In this document: positions 5,214 to 59,342 of the stretch, one piece after another
Numbering within the stretch: the first letter of the stretch is position 1
Layout of the letters: the number at the start of each line of letters is the position of its first letter
Sequence record: OQ223305.1
DNA: 64,000 nt
Source: Escherichia phage EO1
Direction: 5' to 3' (one strand)
Program-made: the position numbers and the translations under genes
The notes under the pieces: generated by a model
Told to the model about the DNA's origin: nothing
The model's input: only the letters and a program-made list of their open reading frames with translations
Database searches by the model: none

Positions 5214-6986
5214 TTAATTAACTCCAGTCGCATCAAATACACCAGGAGCAGTCGTGCTCGTTACGGGTGTCATATTATGAACGACAGTATTTTTCTTAAC
5301 AACATTATTAGTATTATTGATCGAAGGAGATGCTTGTTGAACAGGAGCTTGCTGTGCTTTGTTCTTTTCTATTACCTGGACTTGTTTTGCTTCTGGCGAT
5401 TTAGCAGAAGTTTCAGGTTTGGCATTAGGCTGATTTTTCTTGAGCTCTTGATAAGTAGCATCAATTTTAGAAAATCTAGCAGCAAGTTCTTTTTTAACTG
5501 CCGGTGAATTATTTAAATCCGGGTCATCCATCCGTTTTTTAAGGTCTTCATAGGCAGCTTCAACTGATTTAACCGTTGAGTCTTTACTCATATCAGCCGA
5601 ATCAGCGTATTTTTCAAAACGAATCATCGCGGCACGGGCTTCATTAGCCTTCATTAAAGCATTTTTTCTTTCTTCTGGTGAAAGTTGCTTTAATTTTTCT
5701 TCTTCTGCTGTGCGTTCTTCGTCGGTAGTTAGTGCTTCTTTATTATCAACGCCACGAATCCAGTTAGATGCACGAGTTTTCCAATTAGCAATTTTATCTA
5801 ATCCTTTTGCTATCGGACCAAGGTCTCCGTTCATTCGTTTATCTTGATAATTTGCAACTTTTTCCTGGTCTTCTTTATTGAGAGATGCTCCAGTAGAATT
5901 TTGGAAATTTTCTAGTGCTCTTCCTTCTACTTCATCAGCAGTATCCTTCATACCAGGAATGACTCGAAGAATTGCCGCAGATAATTTAGCCATTCCAAGC
6001 TGAATAAGTTCTCCTAAATTATAAAGAACCTTTCCAAGCCCTTCTACAATAGCTACCGTCAAACCGCCCCAATCTCCCTCTTCCCAGAATTTTTTAATTT
6101 CATCAATAGAACTAAAGATGCTCTGTAATAAAGGACCCCATGTTCCGGTTTCGCTAGAGAATTTAGTAAAGTCTGTACTAAACAAATCCCAAGCCTGTGA
6201 AAATTTATCTGACCAATATTTGAAATGAACCATCAACAGGTCTATTCCAACAACAACAGCCAATATCATTGCAGTCATTTTAGCAGCTTCAATAGCAGCA
6301 CTGACGGTATACTTAAATAGCATGCTTGATATTTTATCAGTAATTGAAATGGATTTCTTAAATCCGAAATCAACAGTCTTTGTTAATTTATCTAAAGCTT
6401 GAGATAATTTTAAGTTAAATGCGTCTTTTTTCTGTTTTTCTTCTGGTGATTCTTGTTTGGGTTCAACTGGCTGAGGGGCAGGGAAAAAATCAGCATCAGG
6501 ATCATTATTAACTGCTTCAGGAGCTGGTAATAAAGGACCCACAGATTCAGCTGTATCGTCCTCAACAACTTTAACAGGAATAGCGCTTTCAACTGTGGCT
6601 AAACTAGTTCCTGTTTGTTGAATTCCGGCTGTCTGAATTTTTTGCTCTAGTAAACTTGTTAATTTATCTAATTTGCTCCCGAGTGATTCACCGATTTCTT
6701 TATTAATATTATTGCCAATTTCAACAGTTTCAGCAATTAACTCAGAACCAGCAGTAGTATCACTCACTGCGCTTTCTACATTGTCAATTGCTCCAATTAT
6801 TTCATTCGATTTTTCTTCGACAGTTTGAGCAATTAATTCAGAAGCAGCTTGAGCATCATCCAATTTCGTAGATATATCGTTAAGTCCAGATAAAGTGTTA
6901 GAAGCGGATTTAGCCGCTTCCTGTGTTGGTTTATTATCTGAAATAACTTTTCTACGCATCGTTTGCATTTCTTGTGGCTTTTTCAT
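5214..6986 (-). CDS. 29: baseplate hub / tail length determinator gp29
   Basis: 590-aa ORF with long helical, low-complexity middle. Length and synteny match T4 gp29. Confidence 0.8.
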   Translation of the reverse strand: MKKPQEMQTMRRKVISDNKPTQEAAKSASNTLSGLNDISTKLDDAQAASELIAQTVEEKSNEIIGAIDNVESAVSDTTAGSELIAETVEIGNNINKEIGESLGSKLDKLTSLLEQKIQTAGIQQTGTSLATVESAIPVKVVEDDTAESVGPLLPAPEAVNNDPDADFFPAPQPVEPKQESPEEKQKKDAFNLKLSQALDKLTKTVDFGFKKSISITDKISSMLFKYTVSAAIEAAKMTAMILAVVVGIDLLMVHFKYWSDKFSQAWDLFSTDFTKFSSETGTWGPLLQSIFSSIDEIKKFWEEGDWGGLTVAIVEGLGKVLYNLGELIQLGMAKLSAAILRVIPGMKDTADEVEGRALENFQNSTGASLNKEDQEKVANYQDKRMNGDLGPIAKGLDKIANWKTRASNWIRGVDNKEALTTDEERTAEEEKLKQLSPEERKNALMKANEARAAMIRFEKYADSADMSKDSTVKSVEAAYEDLKKRMDDPDLNNSPAVKKELAARFSKIDATYQELKKNQPNAKPETSAKSPEAKQVQVIEKNKAQQAPVQQASPSINNTNNVVKKNTVVHNMTPVTSTTAPGVFDATGVN

Positions 6987-7516
6987 TCAAATAATCCAAT
7001 AATATTGCCAATTCCGGTTATTGGACCATTAGGGCCAGGAATTGCTAAAGTTGTAAAAATATCATTTGCCCATTTTAAAACGAATGCTGGCATCTCAAGA
7101 AAATTAATTTCTTTAACTTCATCATTGACCTTAAGCAAGCATTTGGATAACATATCGCTCACCGTTAAAAATTGTTCAAATTTTCCAGGAGGTCTAAAAT
7201 AAAATGTATTTCCTTGGTATTGAAATTCCAATCTTTGGCATACATAAACATCATTAATGTCATAAGTATAACCATCTATTTCTTTACGAGATTTAATCTT
7301 TCCATTAAATTCCAATAGATGAATAGAAACGAAATCAACTTCTGCCGGTGATAAATTCGGACAAATAGAATCAATAAGAAGTTTTAAATTTTCATCAGGA
7401 CCTTTAACATCTTTTAAAATGTTATAATGTTTAAGACCCATTTTAGGAATAGAAACTTCTTTATTGCTTATTGGAAGAACTACTTTCTTCAGTGGTAGTA
7501 TCAGATTTAAATTCAT
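6983..7516 (-). CDS. 28: baseplate hub distal subunit gp28
   Basis: 177-aa ORF, ATG start, overlaps the 3' end of gene 27. Length matches T4 gp28. Confidence 0.7.
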
Positions 7517-8636
7517 TTTTAACCTTAACTGGGTCTATTGTTTCCAGTTTCGTTGCATTAGTGAACATATATAGATGAGTTACTGAATTATTATTTGATA
7601 ATTCATGGATGACTTCATCAACGTAAAATTCTGTTTTAAATTGGTTTTTACTATCGTTAAAAATAATTTTAACGCCAGGTGTCAAGTTAAAATTACCGAC
7701 AGTAGAACATTTAGCATAGCCATCGTATTGTGCCATAGTTTGAAGACGAATAGCTTCTTCATATCCATTCCTATAAGTCATTTCAGAATAAGCACCTGAC
7801 CTTGATACCACAATAGAGTTTTCTCCCTTTCCTGTAGTAATCATTGGCAATGAAGAATCTAAAAATGAATGCGCATAAATAGTAGCATTTTTCATTGGGT
7901 CACGTTTATGAGGATTCGATTTAGTCAACCAAACGAAATCATATGCTAATGGATATTTTAATTCTTGGATGAATTGACCTATTAAAGATGGCTCACCGAC
8001 AATCATTGGATACGGTTCTTGATTTATCATCATATCATAGTCCATCATGTTAACTCCCATGATGTCTTGCCACACAAATACAAATTTGTCACTTCCTACA
8101 GCTAGAGCAACTTCTCTAACATACGACAAATAGTTTTCAAATGTGCTAGTCCATGGAATATCAGGAACATAAGCATTTATAGCATTTATTGCTGGAGTTA
8201 ATAACGTGCGATCCTGATAAATGACACCAAGCATTTCCTTTATAGATTCACCTGCATCAGAGAAAAACGGTCTGCCAAATTTAAGATTTTCTATAGAATG
8301 AATAGTTCCCAATTCAATAGCAATGATGTTATCACCCTTTGAATCTACAGATACAGAAAAATGCTTACATCCATAAATTCGTGTTTTAACATTATTAATA
8401 TCGTTTGCATTAGCTACAGAAATCTGAATTATTTCATTTCCATCCATTTTTGTATGGATATTTTTAGAATCATAAAACTGCAGCATTCCTTCATTTCGGC
8501 CATAAAGAGAATCCCGCATAGTTAATGTGGTAATAGTAGCAGCTAATTCAACAAATCTATTATTACTCCAAGCGTCGTAGCTATCAAATAATTTAACGCT
8601 GAGATTTGGATATCCTGGGCGTTGCAACATACTCAT
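7461..8636 (-). CDS. 27: baseplate hub subunit gp27
   Basis: 391-aa ORF, ATG start. Length and synteny match T4 gp27. Confidence 0.8.
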
Positions 8637-53701: not shown

Positions 53702-54175
53702 ATGAAATCATATACTCAATTTTTAAATGAAGCGGTGTTAAATGAAGCATCTAGCACCGAAATTCAAGCTGTCGCAAAAGCAGCCATTGCAGCGGGTAAA
53801 TATTCTTATAAAGATGCTTCTGATGAATCGCGATTCCAGTTCGCACGCGACATGAAAGCGGAAGGATTTACGGGAAATGCAGTTAGTATGGCCTGGAAAA
53901 GTTTAGTTGCTACTGGCGCTGCTTTTGCAAAGGCTTCGGGTAAACCTGCTCCTAAAGCAGATCCTAAAGCTGCACAAGAAAAAAATATTGTTAAAGGAAT
54001 TATCGCTAAATATGAAGCTATCCTTAAAGAGCTTTTAGTAATCAAAACCGAAGGCCAAAAGCTAGCTCGTGCTTATAGTTTCAAAGATAACCCACATGCT
54101 CATGACCTAGAGTATGTTGAAGATCTCCAAAAAATCATCAAAGACCGCATTTGGTCTGCTAAACAAATCAAATAA
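53702..54175 (+). CDS. internal protein (IP) family member with capsid targeting sequence; Ala/Lys-rich
   Basis: 157-aa ORF. N-terminus MKSYTQFLNE-A resembles the IP capsid-targeting consensus with an LxE cleavage motif. AGGA RBS. Bracketed by two copies of the same terminator. Confidence 0.55.
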   Translation: MKSYTQFLNEAVLNEASSTEIQAVAKAAIAAGKYSYKDASDESRFQFARDMKAEGFTGNAVSMAWKSLVATGAAFAKASGKPAPKADPKAAQEKNIVKGIIAKYEAILKELLVIKTEGQKLARAYSFKDNPHAHDLEYVEDLQKIIKDRIWSAKQIK

Positions 54176-54969: not shown

Positions 54970-55563
54970 ATGAACATGCTGAAGAAAATTGTTGAGTTTA
55001 TTCGCACTAAACTTGGTTCTGCTATGGCTAAAAATCTATCTGTTGAAGAGCAGTATACTGCCGCAGCAGCAAAATTGCTTGATAAAATTAAAGATCTAAA
55101 AACTGCTTCTGTTAAATCTATTAATGAAGAAAAGCGTATTCGTGAACTTATTGTCGAAAAGAATAAGCAGGCCGAATCAAAAGAGCGTGAAATTCGCAAG
55201 CTCCTTTCGGAAGGTCAAGATGTAACAATGCATGCTAAACTTGGTTTACTATATCGTCGAACAGCTGAGCAGTTGACTACTAAAGCTGATGGTTATGCTG
55301 AAATGCGAATTGAAATCGCCAAGAAAGTAGTTGAGTTAGATGATGCTCGCCAAGAACTTGCAGTTAAATTGGAATATATCCGTGAAACTCGCGCCGCGAA
55401 TGCCCTTGGAATTAGTACTGCTGATGATGTAGTTGAAATTGCAGCACTGACTAAGGTTGATATTGAAGATACTCTTGCTCGAGTTGAAACCTTTAATGGT
55501 AATATTTCTGGGGTTGAAACTACCTCTGCCGATGTTCAGGAATATATTAATTCTCTGAAATAA
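54970..55563 (+). CDS. coiled-coil protein, function unknown
   Basis: 197-aa ORF, strongly helical with heptad-like charge pattern, AAAGGAAA RBS. Confidence 0.5.
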
Positions 55564-55568
55564 TGATA

Positions 55569-55584
55569 AGGGGCTTCGGCCCCT
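55569..55584 (+). terminator. GC hairpin (weak terminator or RNA stability element)
   Basis: AGGGGC-TTCG-GCCCCT, same stem family as the hoc terminator, but no U tract. Confidence 0.4.
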
Positions 55585-55604: not shown

Positions 55605-56213
55605 ATGAAAATGCAAAGTGATTTCAATTCAATGTTTGAAGAGTTCCAAAGACAGGTTGATGTTCCAGACCAATTATTAAATGCTCTTAAACGTATGGCA
55701 GAAGGACGTAATTATTATTGGGGTTCTTCATATGAAACTGTTGAAAGTCTTTCTGGAAGATTTTCTAGAGGTAAAAAGTCTTTAATACGTCCTGGAATAC
55801 TTATTAACAGTATTGAATCAATTCATTTATTAACATGCGATTTTGACGTTGAATTTACTGATTTTGTTTCTCCTGAATGGACGGTCTGTTATTTAAACGA
55901 CGATTATGATTATCTTGGCGTTTATAGTTTAAGTGATGCATGGTTTAAACGTAATTTACAAAAGTCAAATTTATTCTATATTGATACTACTGTAAAATTT
56001 CAGGGCAAGAAATATTTCTTTACTCTTATAGTTGACTCTGAAACAAAATATGAAAATAAACGTATTCTTAGTAAAAAGAATATCTTAACTACTGTCGATG
56101 ATCTTTTTGATAAATTCGTAGAAAATCCCAATTTTGAAAGCGATTTATTATTAGAAAAATTTGTTAAGGAATGCAGAGAATATGTCAAAACCATCACTAT
56201 ACCTTCCAAGTAA
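55605..56213 (+). CDS. hypothetical protein (first gene of a tandem family sharing a 3' junction module)
   Basis: 202-aa ORF. C-terminal ..EKFVKECREY.. is encoded by TTTGTTAAGGAATGCAG, which carries the RBS of the next gene. Confidence 0.5.
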   Translation: MKMQSDFNSMFEEFQRQVDVPDQLLNALKRMAEGRNYYWGSSYETVESLSGRFSRGKKSLIRPGILINSIESIHLLTCDFDVEFTDFVSPEWTVCYLNDDYDYLGVYSLSDAWFKRNLQKSNLFYIDTTVKFQGKKYFFTLIVDSETKYENKRILSKKNILTTVDDLFDKFVENPNFESDLLLEKFVKECREYVKTITIPSK

Positions 56214-56574
56214 ACCGTTGAAGTATGAATTAAAGCGTCAGATAATTTCTACTGATGTGTTAATAGGTCCTGTGGTAGCTGTATCATTTGTGATTCTGCT
56301 GATTGCTGGAATGGTTATAGACGTTATGACTGATATTGGATCTAATACAATATTTGCGTCAACGCTAATTCTTCCATTGGTAGTTCCGCTTTTATTAGTA
56401 CCTATAAATTGGATAGGATATTGGTATCAAGGAAGACACTATCGTAAACGTGTACGTGATTGGAAAGCCCAGTGCAAAAAGATTAAAAAAGAACATCAGC
56501 TTAAACTTGCTGCGTATGAATTTGATGAAATTATGAAATTTGTTAAGGAATCACGATGCAAAAGCCAAAACTAA
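56182..56574 (+). CDS. small membrane protein, paralog family member
   Basis: Track start at 56161 is a TTG; ATG at 56182. Two TM helices, then a basic segment and ..FVKESRCK.. tail. Confidence 0.45.
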   Translation: MSKPSLYLPSKPLKYELKRQIISTDVLIGPVVAVSFVILLIAGMVIDVMTDIGSNTIFASTLILPLVVPLLLVPINWIGYWYQGRHYRKRVRDWKAQCKKIKKEHQLKLAAYEFDEIMKFVKESRCKSQN

Positions 56575-56930
56575 ATAAAGTCAAATATTCTCTTCCTGAG
56601 TCATTTTTAATTTTTGCTGTAGCGTTGGCTACAGCTCTTGCGGGTAGTCTTTTTGGATTGTTAATTGACTGTCTTATTTTAAACATCCGTAGTAACGTCA
56701 GCGGTATAATAGATATAATAGAAGTTTGGAGTGAACTTCATTATACTATAGCGATTTCATTATTTTCATTCTTTGGTACAATGTTATATTTTCATTATGA
56801 TAATTTTAAAATAAATTGGCAAAGAAAAAAGGATTACAAAATACAATTAAAGGAATATAATAGCTACATGTCTTATATTGAAAAAGAATCAATGGAAGAG
56901 TTTGTGAGTGATTGTAGGAAAATTAAATGA
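56556..56930 (+). CDS. small membrane protein, paralog family member
   Basis: 124 aa, two TM helices, tail ..EEFVSDCRKIK. Start overlaps the previous gene. Confidence 0.45.
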   Translation: MQKPKLNKVKYSLPESFLIFAVALATALAGSLFGLLIDCLILNIRSNVSGIIDIIEVWSELHYTIAISLFSFFGTMLYFHYDNFKINWQRKKDYKIQLKEYNSYMSYIEKESMEEFVSDCRKIK

Positions 56931-57415
56931 TTTTAAAAACTCGCTGGTATGATTTAGATGACGGGGATGATGGCATTTCAGTTGATAGAGTTGACTGGAA
57001 TGGCTGTTCCGAAGATATGAAAAATTTGCTGATTAGGGAGTTTAGAATGGGATATCAACCAGTTAAGCCATCTACTGCAACAGATGATAAATTCGTGTGT
57101 ATTCATAATGGTCGCGCTAAATTAACGAACGCTGATTGGTTCACAGATAAAATTATGATTCTATGGTATATTATTAGTCTTCCTGTGACATCATTCGTAT
57201 TTTACTTTTTTATAAAAAATCCAATGGACAGAATAGGAGATTGGATTCTTTTAACCATACTTGTTAATATTTTTACTGCAGCAATATTATCTGGGATATG
57301 GTACACGTTCATTGAAATGCCATGGCGTTTACGCAGACAACAAAAGATTTTTGATGAAAAGAAATATACCCAAAATTTAAATAGCTTTATCACTGAATGC
57401 AGGAAATTAAAATGA
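56927..57415 (+). CDS. membrane protein, paralog family member
   Basis: 162 aa, two TM helices in the C-terminal half, tail ..FITECRKLK. ATGA overlaps with both neighbours. Confidence 0.45.
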   Translation: MILKTRWYDLDDGDDGISVDRVDWNGCSEDMKNLLIREFRMGYQPVKPSTATDDKFVCIHNGRAKLTNADWFTDKIMILWYIISLPVTSFVFYFFIKNPMDRIGDWILLTILVNIFTAAILSGIWYTFIEMPWRLRRQQKIFDEKKYTQNLNSFITECRKLK

Positions 57416-57852
57416 AAACATTATCAGCTGGTATTATCTTTATGACAGAAGATAAAGATTTATTTATGGGACGAGTTACTGGTTCTCGTAAGCCTGGAAT
57501 GATGGCACATCGCTGGGATATTCCAAAAGGTCGTGTAGAAAATTCTGATTTAAGCGCATTAGATGCAGCACGAAGAGAATGCTCAGAAGAGACTGGTTTT
57601 AACAATTATAATCCAGACCTTCTAGAAGACCTAGGTGTATTTAAATATTCTAGTAATAAAGACTTACAGTTATTTTATTATACGATTCCAGTAGAGCATG
57701 AGATGTTCAGAAATTGCCGTTGTGAGTCTTATTTTGAAAATAAAGATGGCGTTATGATTCCAGAGATGGATGCTTTTGCTCTTATTCCTCGTACTCAGTG
57801 GCAATATGTGATGGGTCCTTCACTTTACCGAATAATGAACAGCCTCTTTTAA
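57412..57852 (+). CDS. nudE: Nudix hydrolase NudE
   Basis: Nudix box GRVENSDLSALDAARRECSEETGF. ATG at 57412 with AGGAAA RBS is preferred over the track start at 57397. Lies just upstream of e, as in T4. Confidence 0.75.
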   Translation: MKTLSAGIIFMTEDKDLFMGRVTGSRKPGMMAHRWDIPKGRVENSDLSALDAARRECSEETGFNNYNPDLLEDLGVFKYSSNKDLQLFYYTIPVEHEMFRNCRCESYFENKDGVMIPEMDAFALIPRTQWQYVMGPSLYRIMNSLF

Positions 57853-58383
<531 letters not shown>

Positions 58384-58868: not shown

Positions 58869-59342
58869 ATGAAAACATATCAAGAATTTATTACTGAAGC
58901 AGCTATTAATTCTCAAATTATTGCTGAATCTTTTACTGATCTTTTGAAATTTAAAAAAGGTCAAAAAATCACTGCTGTATTGGATGATGGTACAGAAGTT
59001 GAGATGGATGTACAGGGATATAATTATGCAGTAGATGGAAAACTGTATAATAAATCTCATGCTAAATTTGATTCATTTGACGACTTTGTTAATACAGTTG
59101 AAGATGAAAAAACTCGTCGATCCATTGCAACTGGTGATGCTAAGGTTCTTATGGCACATGGTCATGAACGCATTCGCGCTAAACAGAATAAAATGGGTGA
59201 AGATAATTTTGCATTAGTTGGTTATCAATCTGGTAAACAAACTTATGGCTATCAACGTACTGCTACCATGTATAATAAAAATGGTAAAATCGCCTTTGTG
59301 AATAGCAAAGGTTCTGTTCAGTATGTCAAATCATTCAAATAA
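58869..59342 (+). CDS. internal protein (IP) family member with capsid targeting sequence
   Basis: 157 aa. N-terminus MKTYQEFITE-A is almost the canonical IP capsid-targeting sequence. AAAGGAAA RBS. Confidence 0.6.
   Translation: MKTYQEFITEAAINSQIIAESFTDLLKFKKGQKITAVLDDGTEVEMDVQGYNYAVDGKLYNKSHAKFDSFDDFVNTVEDEKTRRSIATGDAKVLMAHGHERIRAKQNKMGEDNFALVGYQSGKQTYGYQRTATMYNKNGKIAFVNSKGSVQYVKSFK

Follow-up and report, generated by a model that had tools for sequence, protein, structure and literature searches.

Four overlapping genes in a variable region of T-even phages share a C-terminal tail peptide

Among the small accessory proteins that T4 places in the inner membrane are Imm, Sp, RI, and Ac, which are non-essential and have one or two membrane helices. 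The internal proteins of T-even phages carry the capsid targeting sequence (CTS), an N-terminal peptide that directs proteins into the capsid and that the prohead protease cuts off; it is of the MKTYQEFIAE type, as reportedly described by Mullaney and Black in 1996 and by Repoila and co-workers in 1994. The hyperplastic regions of T4-type genomes have short repeats at gene boundaries, where recombination inserts or deletes whole genes; this promoter early stem-loop (PeSL) is a non-coding unit consisting of a promoter plus a terminator (PMC2839356). About 130 of the nearly 300 T4 genes are uncharacterized (bioRxiv 10.1101/2025.11.20.689424), and e.2 to e.5 are among the unstudied ones. We analyzed a stretch of 64,000 nucleotides (nt) from Escherichia phage EO1 (OQ223305.1; one strand, 5' to 3'), hereafter called the window, in which the direct orthologs of T4 e.5, e.4, e.3, and e.2 lie in the same order as in T4, between e.6 and nudE. 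All four proteins end in a related peptide, here called the tail, whose codons overlap the signals that start the next gene. Databases treat the four as separate families of unknown function, with the shared tail apparently unrecorded; T4 e.2 is frameshifted, whereas the window copy is intact. No paper on e.2 to e.5 was found in the literature searched, so the genes are known while the shared tail appears to be undescribed there.

The initial annotation had placed four gene starts and four similar tails in this part of the window, and re-reading of the open reading frames (ORFs) and translations bore out both. The genes are as follows (aa, amino acids; TM, transmembrane).

55605..56213, plus strand: e.5 (T4 Y06P family), 202 aa, predicted soluble, with the tail FVKECR in its last helix; ends ...EKFVKECREYVKTITIPSK; 32-nt overlap with e.4
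56182..56574, plus strand: e.4 (T4 Y06O family), predicted two-TM hairpin of 130 aa with the tail FVKESRCK; ends ...MKFVKESRCKSQN; 19-nt overlap with e.3
56556..56930, plus strand: e.3, predicted two-TM hairpin of 124 aa with the tail FVSDCRKIK (end ...EEFVSDCRKIK); ATGA stop/start overlap with e.2
56927..57415, plus strand: e.2 (T4 Y06M family), 162 aa with the tail FITECRKLK (end ...SFITECRKLK); ATGA overlap with nudE

The tail follows the consensus (L/M)-x-x-F-(I/V)-x-(E/D)-C-R. The pattern F[VIL]x[ED][CS]R occurred exactly four times in the six-frame translation of the 64 kb, each time at the C-terminus of e.5, e.4, e.3, or e.2, against a mean of 0.66 occurrences in base shuffles of the same DNA. 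In the complete 166-kb genome of ES12, a close relative, it was found six times, at the end of an ORF only in these four genes, and a looser pattern added no ORF-terminal case in that genome. These counts therefore exclude chance and make the tail specific to this cluster within a Tequatrovirus.

We then compared the tails of related phages, using loci from T4, UFV10 (an oddly arranged Tequatrovirus), Mosigvirus ST0 and two IMG/VR contigs, Gaprivervirus RZ and others, and Dhakavirus VR5, dhaeg, and others. A k-mer-filtered search for e.3 homologs returned Tequatrovirus proteins only (at least 69% identity) and missed the Mosigvirus and Gaprivervirus orthologs, which are often unannotated; these were recovered from loci anchored on e.6. 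Every ortholog fetched retained the tail, in the following versions.

Mosigvirus: e.5 ..QFIMECREYVK..; e.4 ..EFVKEIRCKSLNS (FVKEIRCK); e.3 ..NFIKECRK
Mosigvirus, e.2 homolog located elsewhere in the region: ..RFITECRNLR
Mosigvirus, extra two-TM gene of 101 aa: ..NFIKECRGK
Gaprivervirus and Dhakavirus: e.5 ..RFI(A/K/T)ECREYAK..; e.4 ..EFIKEVRNGTA; e.3 ..TFIKECKS
Gaprivervirus and Dhakavirus, e.2 or a homolog, then a different gene: ..FIEECRK

The ortholog groups held their own flavor of the tail in Tequatro-, Mosig-, Gapriver-, and Dhakavirus (ECREY in every e.5, for example). Concerted evolution of the tails within a genome was rejected, since orthologs resemble one another more than paralogs do. 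When the e.2 family profile was searched exhaustively against 1.84 billion representative proteins, only 15 matches were obtained, and all of the distant metagenomic relatives retrieved in full length (8 of 8) ended in F-I-x-(E/G/M)-C-R, followed by one to four last residues. Among ten diverse e.2 sequences the tail was the top 7-column window, with an identity of 0.75 compared with a mean column identity of 0.195; in the e.3 alignment it was likewise the top window (0.61, mean 0.34). An IMG/VR scan with the degenerate pattern TTTATTAARGAATGYMG yielded no usable census: the matches came to at least 120 loci, and of the 120 listed, chance hits in AT-rich DNA accounted for 114, the convincing tails among those listed all being T4-like.

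At the nucleotide level the tails coincide with the Shine-Dalgarno (SD) sequences and starts of the downstream genes, and together with nudE the four form a chain of overlapping, probably translationally coupled genes (e.5, e.4, e.3, e.2, nudE) in a variable accessory region. The junctions are built as follows.

56160..56177, plus strand: e.5 tail codons TTT GTT AAG GAA TGC AGA; AAGGAA is SD-like for e.4 (ATG at 56182)
56539..56556, plus strand: e.4 tail codons TTT GTT AAG GAA TCA CGA; AAGGAA is the SD for e.3, and the Arg codon shares one base with the e.3 ATG
56901..56930, plus strand: e.3 tail and junction TTT GTG AGT GAT TGT AGG AAA ATT AAA TGA; AGGAAA is the SD for e.2; ATGA overlap
57386..57415, plus strand: e.2 tail and junction TTT ATC ACT GAA TGC AGG AAA TTA AAA TGA; AGGAAA is the SD for nudE; ATGA overlap
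56157..56172 (copy 1, e.5 tail) and 56536..56551 (copy 2, e.4 tail), plus strand: exact 16-nt direct repeat AAATTTGTTAAGGAAT, from a repeat search

The tails had been described as one repeated nucleotide module that also supplies the ribosome-binding site (RBS) and overlapping start of the next gene. A real, related module overlapping both was indeed present at all four junctions (4/4), although it does not come in four copies: the nucleotide likeness falls into two pairs, e.5/e.4 with the 16-mer and e.3/e.2 with TGyAGGAAAwTTAAATGA, the ATGA stop/start overlap included, and between the pairs only codon-level similarity was seen. In a comparison of 27 distinct 18-nt forms of the motif, most differences lay at third codon positions and in the free "x" codon, with synonymous use of TTT/TTC, ATT/ATC, GAA/GAG, TGT/TGC, and AGA/AGG/CGT/CGC/CGA. 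The proportion of synonymous differences (pS) over the five fixed codons was 0.71, that is, near saturation; the low proportion of nonsynonymous differences is partly circular, as the sequences were chosen by their amino-acid pattern, and evidence was drawn from the high pS only. The position of the SD varied as well. The K-E codons can supply it (AAGGAA or AAGGAG), as can the R-K codons (AGGAAA), or it follows the motif, as does GAGGAAA in the Mosigvirus 101-aa gene and AAAGAGG, starting 12 nt past the motif end, in Gaprivervirus e.5; across genera it is found inside the motif, just after it, or about 20 nt after it. That the peptide is kept where it lies outside the RBS, with its synonymous positions saturated, argues for a main constraint on the protein and against the tail being a by-product of the RBS. 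The comparison shows that the tail peptide is under purifying selection as protein and that it predates the split of the Tevenvirinae genera examined.

No promoter was found at the junctions (22 promoter-like sites compared with 18.5 ± 3.8 in shuffles, none of them at a junction), and a scan of the array revealed no stem-loop in them; promoter or terminator elements at the junctions were rejected because the signals were not above background. The likeness of the e.3>e.2 and e.2>nudE junctions runs on for about 45 nt past the ATG (56927-56975 and 57412-57460; GCTGGTAT.AT.T..ATGAC), partly in different frames. Its score was reached by 0.16% of random windows, a post hoc and uncorrected value, and the stretch could be a remnant of a duplication unit or chance.

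The three membrane proteins had been said to share two hydrophobic helices, a basic stretch, and the tail, and this held: e.4, e.3, and e.2 each have two TM windows and basic termini. The 19-residue sums on the Hessa scale were -0.7 and 1.8 for e.4 (aa 28-46 and 57-75), -1.5 and 2.8 for e.3 (aa 19-37 and 61-79), and 0.7 and -0.6 for e.2 (aa 78-96 and 106-124), while the best windows of e.5, e.6, and nudE were at least 9.2. The Kyte-Doolittle scale concurred, except that TM2 of e.3 fell under the 1.6 cut-off; this weakest segment is nevertheless conserved in position and is more hydrophobic in the Gaprivervirus orthologs. The C-terminal segments of the three proteins contain 9 to 15 Lys plus Arg and their N-termini are also Lys/Arg-rich, compared with 0 to 2 Lys plus Arg and a net charge of -2 to +1 in the loops. 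On these grounds e.4, e.3, and e.2 are predicted to be small inner-membrane hairpins with both termini in the cytoplasm. In e.2 the hairpin is preceded by a 75-aa N-terminal domain and followed by a long basic helix and the tail. By contrast, e.5 has no hydrophobic window and is, by this prediction, soluble. The AlphaFold2 (AF2) model of e.5 (predicted local distance difference test [pLDDT] score, 58) has a helix at 181-196 that runs through the tail, and that of e.2 (pLDDT, 50), of use for secondary structure only, has helices at 69-96 and 99-161, the second of which also takes in the tail. A Foldseek search of the e.5 model against the PDB gave no match (best E value, 4.6e-3; template modeling score, ≤0.24), and its hits to small alarmone synthetases are meaningless. 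Neither e.5 nor the N-terminal domain of e.2 had a structural or family match pointing to a function. Superinfection exclusion or lysis timing, suggested earlier for proteins of this kind, received no backing from Pfam, NCBIfam, or PHROG, in which no match to such families (Imm, Sp, RI, and RIII) was seen at E values up to 1; what these scans did return were unknown-function families or noise below threshold.

The bodies of the four proteins were compared next to the tails. BLASTP aligned e.4 with e.3 at 21% identity (E, 6e-4) and e.3 with e.2 at 23% over 62 residues (E, 8e-4), and hhalign of the ortholog alignments gave probabilities of 88% for e.4-e.3 and 90% for e.3-e.2 over 55 to 59 columns (P, ~2-3e-6; reversed-sequence controls, P ≥0.019). 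For e.5 against the others only 11 to 17 tail columns aligned. Without the tail the best hhalign result was P = 0.0017 for e.4-e.3, over 18 N-terminal columns, and all others were at least 0.009, a level comparable to the reversed-sequence controls; a more diverse e.2 profile aligned to e.3, e.4, the 101-aa protein, and e.5 over its last 13 to 23 residues only. Profile comparison thus detects significant similarity in those last residues and none beyond them. Two weaker resemblances were noted, a common start M-x-K-P-x-L in e.4 and e.3 and an (L/G)-P-x-S-F-V element that opens TM1, with e.3 and e.2 agreeing at 72% of positions over 25 nt. Of the serial duplication of a gene together with its junction, as put forward in the initial annotation, the shared tail module and the common architecture stand, whereas significant body similarity disappears with the tail columns and e.5 shares the tail only. 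Tested by body similarity, whole-gene duplication failed; tested by architecture and adjacency, it passed for e.4, e.3, and e.2 and failed for e.5. The former three are probably old paralogs in which the tail module alone is demonstrably common, and serial whole-gene duplication of these membrane proteins is plausible. As e.5 is predicted to be soluble and has a dissimilar body, its tail would have been acquired by another route than whole-gene duplication.

Copy number among related phages had been proposed for comparison, and it does differ, through loss of e.2 or e.4, an e.4::e.2 fusion, and the extra 101-aa gene of Mosigvirus. In a Δe.2 lineage of Tequatrovirus, the e.3 body with an e.2-type tail (…FVIDCRKLK) is joined straight to nudE, with the crossover within TGCAGGAAA of the e.3 junction; this layout was matched without a break over 321 nt in nine or more named isolates, among them PST, ZN18, ECO07P4/P5, SYGD1, SA20RB, RPN226, and HEMP5. 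Several Dhakavirus and Gaprivervirus contigs lack e.4, and their e.5 tail ends ..EYAKEVQNGTA and runs into the e.3 start, which is explained by a crossover between AAAGAGGTTCAAAATG and AAGGAGGTTCGTAATG in two neighboring junctions. Five UFV isolates have a single 106-aa gene in which the first 31 residues of e.4 are in frame with the TM1-to-tail part of e.2, fused at a 7-nt microhomology (TCCTGTG), with the hairpin-plus-tail architecture kept. In one Mosigvirus contig (L013), e.3 is a pseudogene, internally deleted and out of frame. The e.2 of the T4 reference (AF158101.6; L002 3754-3920, equal to window 57180-57345) has lost one nucleotide from an A-run and gained one 78 nt further downstream, so that TM2 is out of frame and the annotated ORF is a 102-aa N-terminal part. 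Versions of e.2 with 102 aa are also present in other phage records (P0108 and P0109), and the frameshift, instead of reflecting a sequencing error, may be a true allele. The losses, the fusion, the pseudogene, and the frameshifts mean that the genes are dispensable under at least some conditions. In the Δe.2 and Δe.4 events the repeated junctions acted as recombination points and left the next gene correctly coupled, a coincidence of junctions and breakpoints seen in a sample of only a few events; frame and coupling are preserved because tail codons and the RBS and start of the following gene occupy the same DNA. In one IMG/VR Tequatrovirus contig without e.2 (L009 5636-6251), e.5 is split into ORFs of 145 and 92 aa, which suggests that more than one member of the cluster is decaying in that genome.

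The account that we favor combines a coupled gene chain, a conserved common peptide with a docking or assembly role, recombination at the junctions, and old membrane paralogs joined by an e.5 that obtained its tail by recombination; as a whole, we give it a probability of about 0.5. A docking or assembly element is the simplest reading of the tail because it is the best-conserved part of the proteins and the only detectable similarity among the five families. The tail would be cytoplasmic and would close a long amphipathic helix, one face of which would be made up of L/M (i), F (i+3), I/V (i+4), and C (i+7). It could serve as a common docking or assembly peptide, either for one shared partner or by bundling the four proteins in a membrane-associated complex, and e.5 and the membrane proteins would then act at the same site. 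Candidates for what it binds are other tails (in a bundle, perhaps via Cys), the conserved neighbor e.6, or a host protein. The three membrane proteins would be old paralogs whose bodies have diverged past detection, and e.5 would have gained its tail by recombination. Several points weigh against this account. We infer the docking role from the conservation pattern alone, and both AF2 models (pLDDT, 58 and 50) are of low confidence. Early timing and translational coupling of the array are our assumption, made from the gene layout and general knowledge of T4. Alignments cut at the motif Phe gave nothing significant among e.4, e.3, e.2, the Mosigvirus 101-aa protein, and e.5. In e.4 the position of the motif Cys holds S, I, or V, and e.4 may lack the tail's function if that function depends on the Cys. 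Finally, all four tails in this window (4/4) contain the AAGGAA or AGGAAA that serves as SD for the gene downstream, which makes a share of translation initiation in the constraint possible.

The last of these points can be carried further, to the proposal that the tails are alike only since each encodes a U-rich tract and an SD for the overlapping next gene, the peptide itself being functionless. All four window motifs do hold that SD, the motif ends 0 to 10 nt before the next ATG in most members, and e.5 and e.4 continue past the next start, so that the position of the motif is tied less to its own stop than to the next start. Third positions are saturated, however (pS, 0.71), with five Arg codons in use, and F, I/V, C, and R are kept outside any SD both in Gaprivervirus e.5 and in the Mosigvirus 101-aa gene (TTC ATT AAA GAA TGT CGA, with the SD GAGGAAA after it); codons 3 and 4 of Tequatrovirus e.3 and e.2 are non-SD, and no other overlapping gene pair in the 166 kb of ES12 has such a tail. 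We regard a constraint on the nucleotides alone as improbable. Conservation at the peptide level, always next to a tightly coupled start and on proteins that are otherwise little or not alike, would also fit a nascent C-terminal peptide that slows or arrests the terminating ribosome and so holds the overlapping start open for efficient re-initiation. The motif lies, though, anywhere between 1 and 15 codons from its own stop, the tail is missing from the other overlapping gene pairs of the ES12 genome, and no likeness to known arrest peptides was seen, none having been specifically compared; such an effect is hardly credible.

The remaining explanations concern how the tail was distributed. Serial tandem duplication of one membrane-protein gene with its junction would make the tail a piece of retained ancestry, and this is supported by an architecture common to e.4, e.3, e.2, and the Mosigvirus 101-aa protein, by the hhalign probabilities (88% and 90% over 55 to 59 columns), by the M-x-K-P-x-L start of e.4 and e.3, and by the (L/G)-P-x-S-F-V element with its 25 nt of 72% identity between e.3 and e.2, exactly where the UFV fusion joins. 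It is opposed by the loss of significance without the tail columns, with a diverse e.2 profile aligning the last 13 to 23 residues only, by the presence of the tail on e.5, which is without membrane segments and dissimilar in body, and by PHROGs and Pfam, which hold the families apart; nor does retained ancestry explain why the tail is the best-conserved segment. We consider it a tentative possibility, somewhat unlikely on balance. If instead a tail of about 15 codons with its junction had spread like an exon onto unrelated genes, by illegitimate or short-homology recombination, the bodies would not be paralogs at all. The dissimilar body of e.5, the documented crossovers inside junctions, and the Gaprivervirus e.5 tail (KLNRFITECR), which is nearer to Tequatrovirus e.2 (NLNNFITECR) than to its own ortholog's tail, speak for such a cassette, as does a metagenomic protein (P0123, 83 aa; L027 3-306) in which an unrelated N-terminus is followed by the last 21 residues of e.2 (..FDEKKYTQNLNNFITECRKLK). 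That protein comes from a single 524-nt scaffold whose translation failed to return the query, and it may be a mis-assembly, however, the documented events are deletions and not transfers, and a tail flavor proper to each ortholog group across genera argues against frequent exchange, which leaves the cassette distinctly unlikely. A bolder version of the docking idea treats the tail as an address label that T-even phages can move between proteins, the C-terminal equivalent of the CTS. Possibly through its Cys, the label would direct a shifting group of accessory proteins, namely, soluble e.5, three or four membrane hairpins, and further proteins in other genera, to a single hub in the cytoplasm or a single membrane complex, with e.6 as candidate hub, while the coding DNA of the tail would double as a frame-preserving recombination joint for swap, deletion, and fusion. 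This we consider doubtful, a speculation rather than an expectation.

The wider locus is that of a Tequatrovirus. Over the 2.5 kb around the array, identity to Escherichia phages wV7 and RB51 is 97.8%; the region has matches in about 500 Tequatrovirus records, and for 497 of the 506 phage records with a match, coverage of the 2.5 kb is 80% or more. The gene order according to the RB51 and T4 annotations is e.6, e.5, e.4, e.3, e.2, nudE, e (lysozyme), and denV, and the synteny from e.6 to e was upheld by the annotation tables of both phages. The array genes run in the same direction as the adjacent genes and are 74 to 100% identical to their T-even counterparts. Their surroundings are as follows.

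54970-55563: e.6, from the RB51/T4 annotation
55569..55584, plus strand: GC-rich hairpin GGGGC-TTCG-GCCCC between e.6 and e.5, at the upstream edge of the packed gene chain
57412..57852, plus strand: nudE (Nudix hydrolase), last gene of the chain, without the tail; Pfam NUDIX, E 9e-14
57889-58383: e (lysozyme), from the RB51/T4 annotation

In the terminator scan the hairpin at 55569..55584 was terminator-like on the minus strand only. Each array protein matched a PHROG over its full length: e.5 phrog_2607 (1e-108), e.4 phrog_2604 (6e-70), e.3 phrog_2330 (6e-63), and e.2 phrog_2203 (1e-79). Precomputed Pfam matches of the wV7 orthologs were PF26876 (Phage_T4_Y06P) for e.5, PF26873 (Phage_T4_Y06O) for e.4, and PF26896 (Phage_T4_Y06M) for e.2; no precomputed match was present for the wV7 ortholog of e.3, a protein (P0001) to which the window's e.3 is 100% identical. 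The UniProt counterparts of e.5, e.4, e.3, and e.2 are Y06P, Y06O, Y06N, and Y06M, and the T4 record labels e.2 to e.4 "conserved hypothetical, predicted membrane protein." The helix-rich e.6 is 73 to 99% identical across genera, far above the tail-bearing genes downstream of it. It had no family match and no sequence match in the PDB at E values up to 10, and for that reason the idea that it is PspA-like was dropped. Two late-promoter-type sequences (TATAAATA) lie in the gap between nudE and e (57853-57888), just upstream of the lysozyme RBS, in line with the separate late expression of e.

A second array of genes with a shared tail was seen in Mosig-, Gapriver-, and Dhakavirus, starting from the gene after e.3 and absent from the window. 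It comprises three to six small soluble genes that end in W-(V/I/F/Y)-x-S-S-x-x-C plus stop, with the Cys at the C-terminus (e.g., GAWVSSSAMC and GGWVSSSSEC; L007 4191-4978, L012 2828-3622, and L014-L022 at ~6520-8130).

Compared with the known systems, the array resembles Imm, Sp, RI, and Ac in that these too are small, non-essential phage proteins with membrane helices, and it differs from them in sequence and family, scans of the array proteins in Pfam, NCBIfam, and PHROGs having given no match to them; to our knowledge, none of the four carries the tail. Two CTS-type genes flank the e.8-denV block, at 53702-54175 (MKSYTQFLNEAV..) and 58869-59342 (MKTYQEFITEAA..), the second being Ip4 in RB51. 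The CTS is the closest functional analogy to the tail, being likewise a terminal peptide of about 10 residues conserved on otherwise unrelated, highly polymorphic accessory proteins of the same variable region, and it provides a precedent for taking the tail as a docking or address tag. The array tail is, however, C-terminal and sits on membrane and cytoplasmic proteins, so that we speak of an analogy and not of membership. The closest genomic analogy is PeSL. As there, breakpoints in the array (those of Δe.2 and Δe.4) coincide with junction repeats; unlike PeSL, these junctions are coding, have no promoter or terminator signal above background, and keep frame and coupling after recombination. 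The locus shows in this way a second route, beside PeSL cassettes, by which T4-type phages gain and lose genes, namely, short coding repeats at overlapping stop/start junctions. The tail offers an experimental handle that could tie four orphan genes to one pathway, and, set against the systems above, it is an apparently undescribed feature of known orphan genes rather than a new kind of system.

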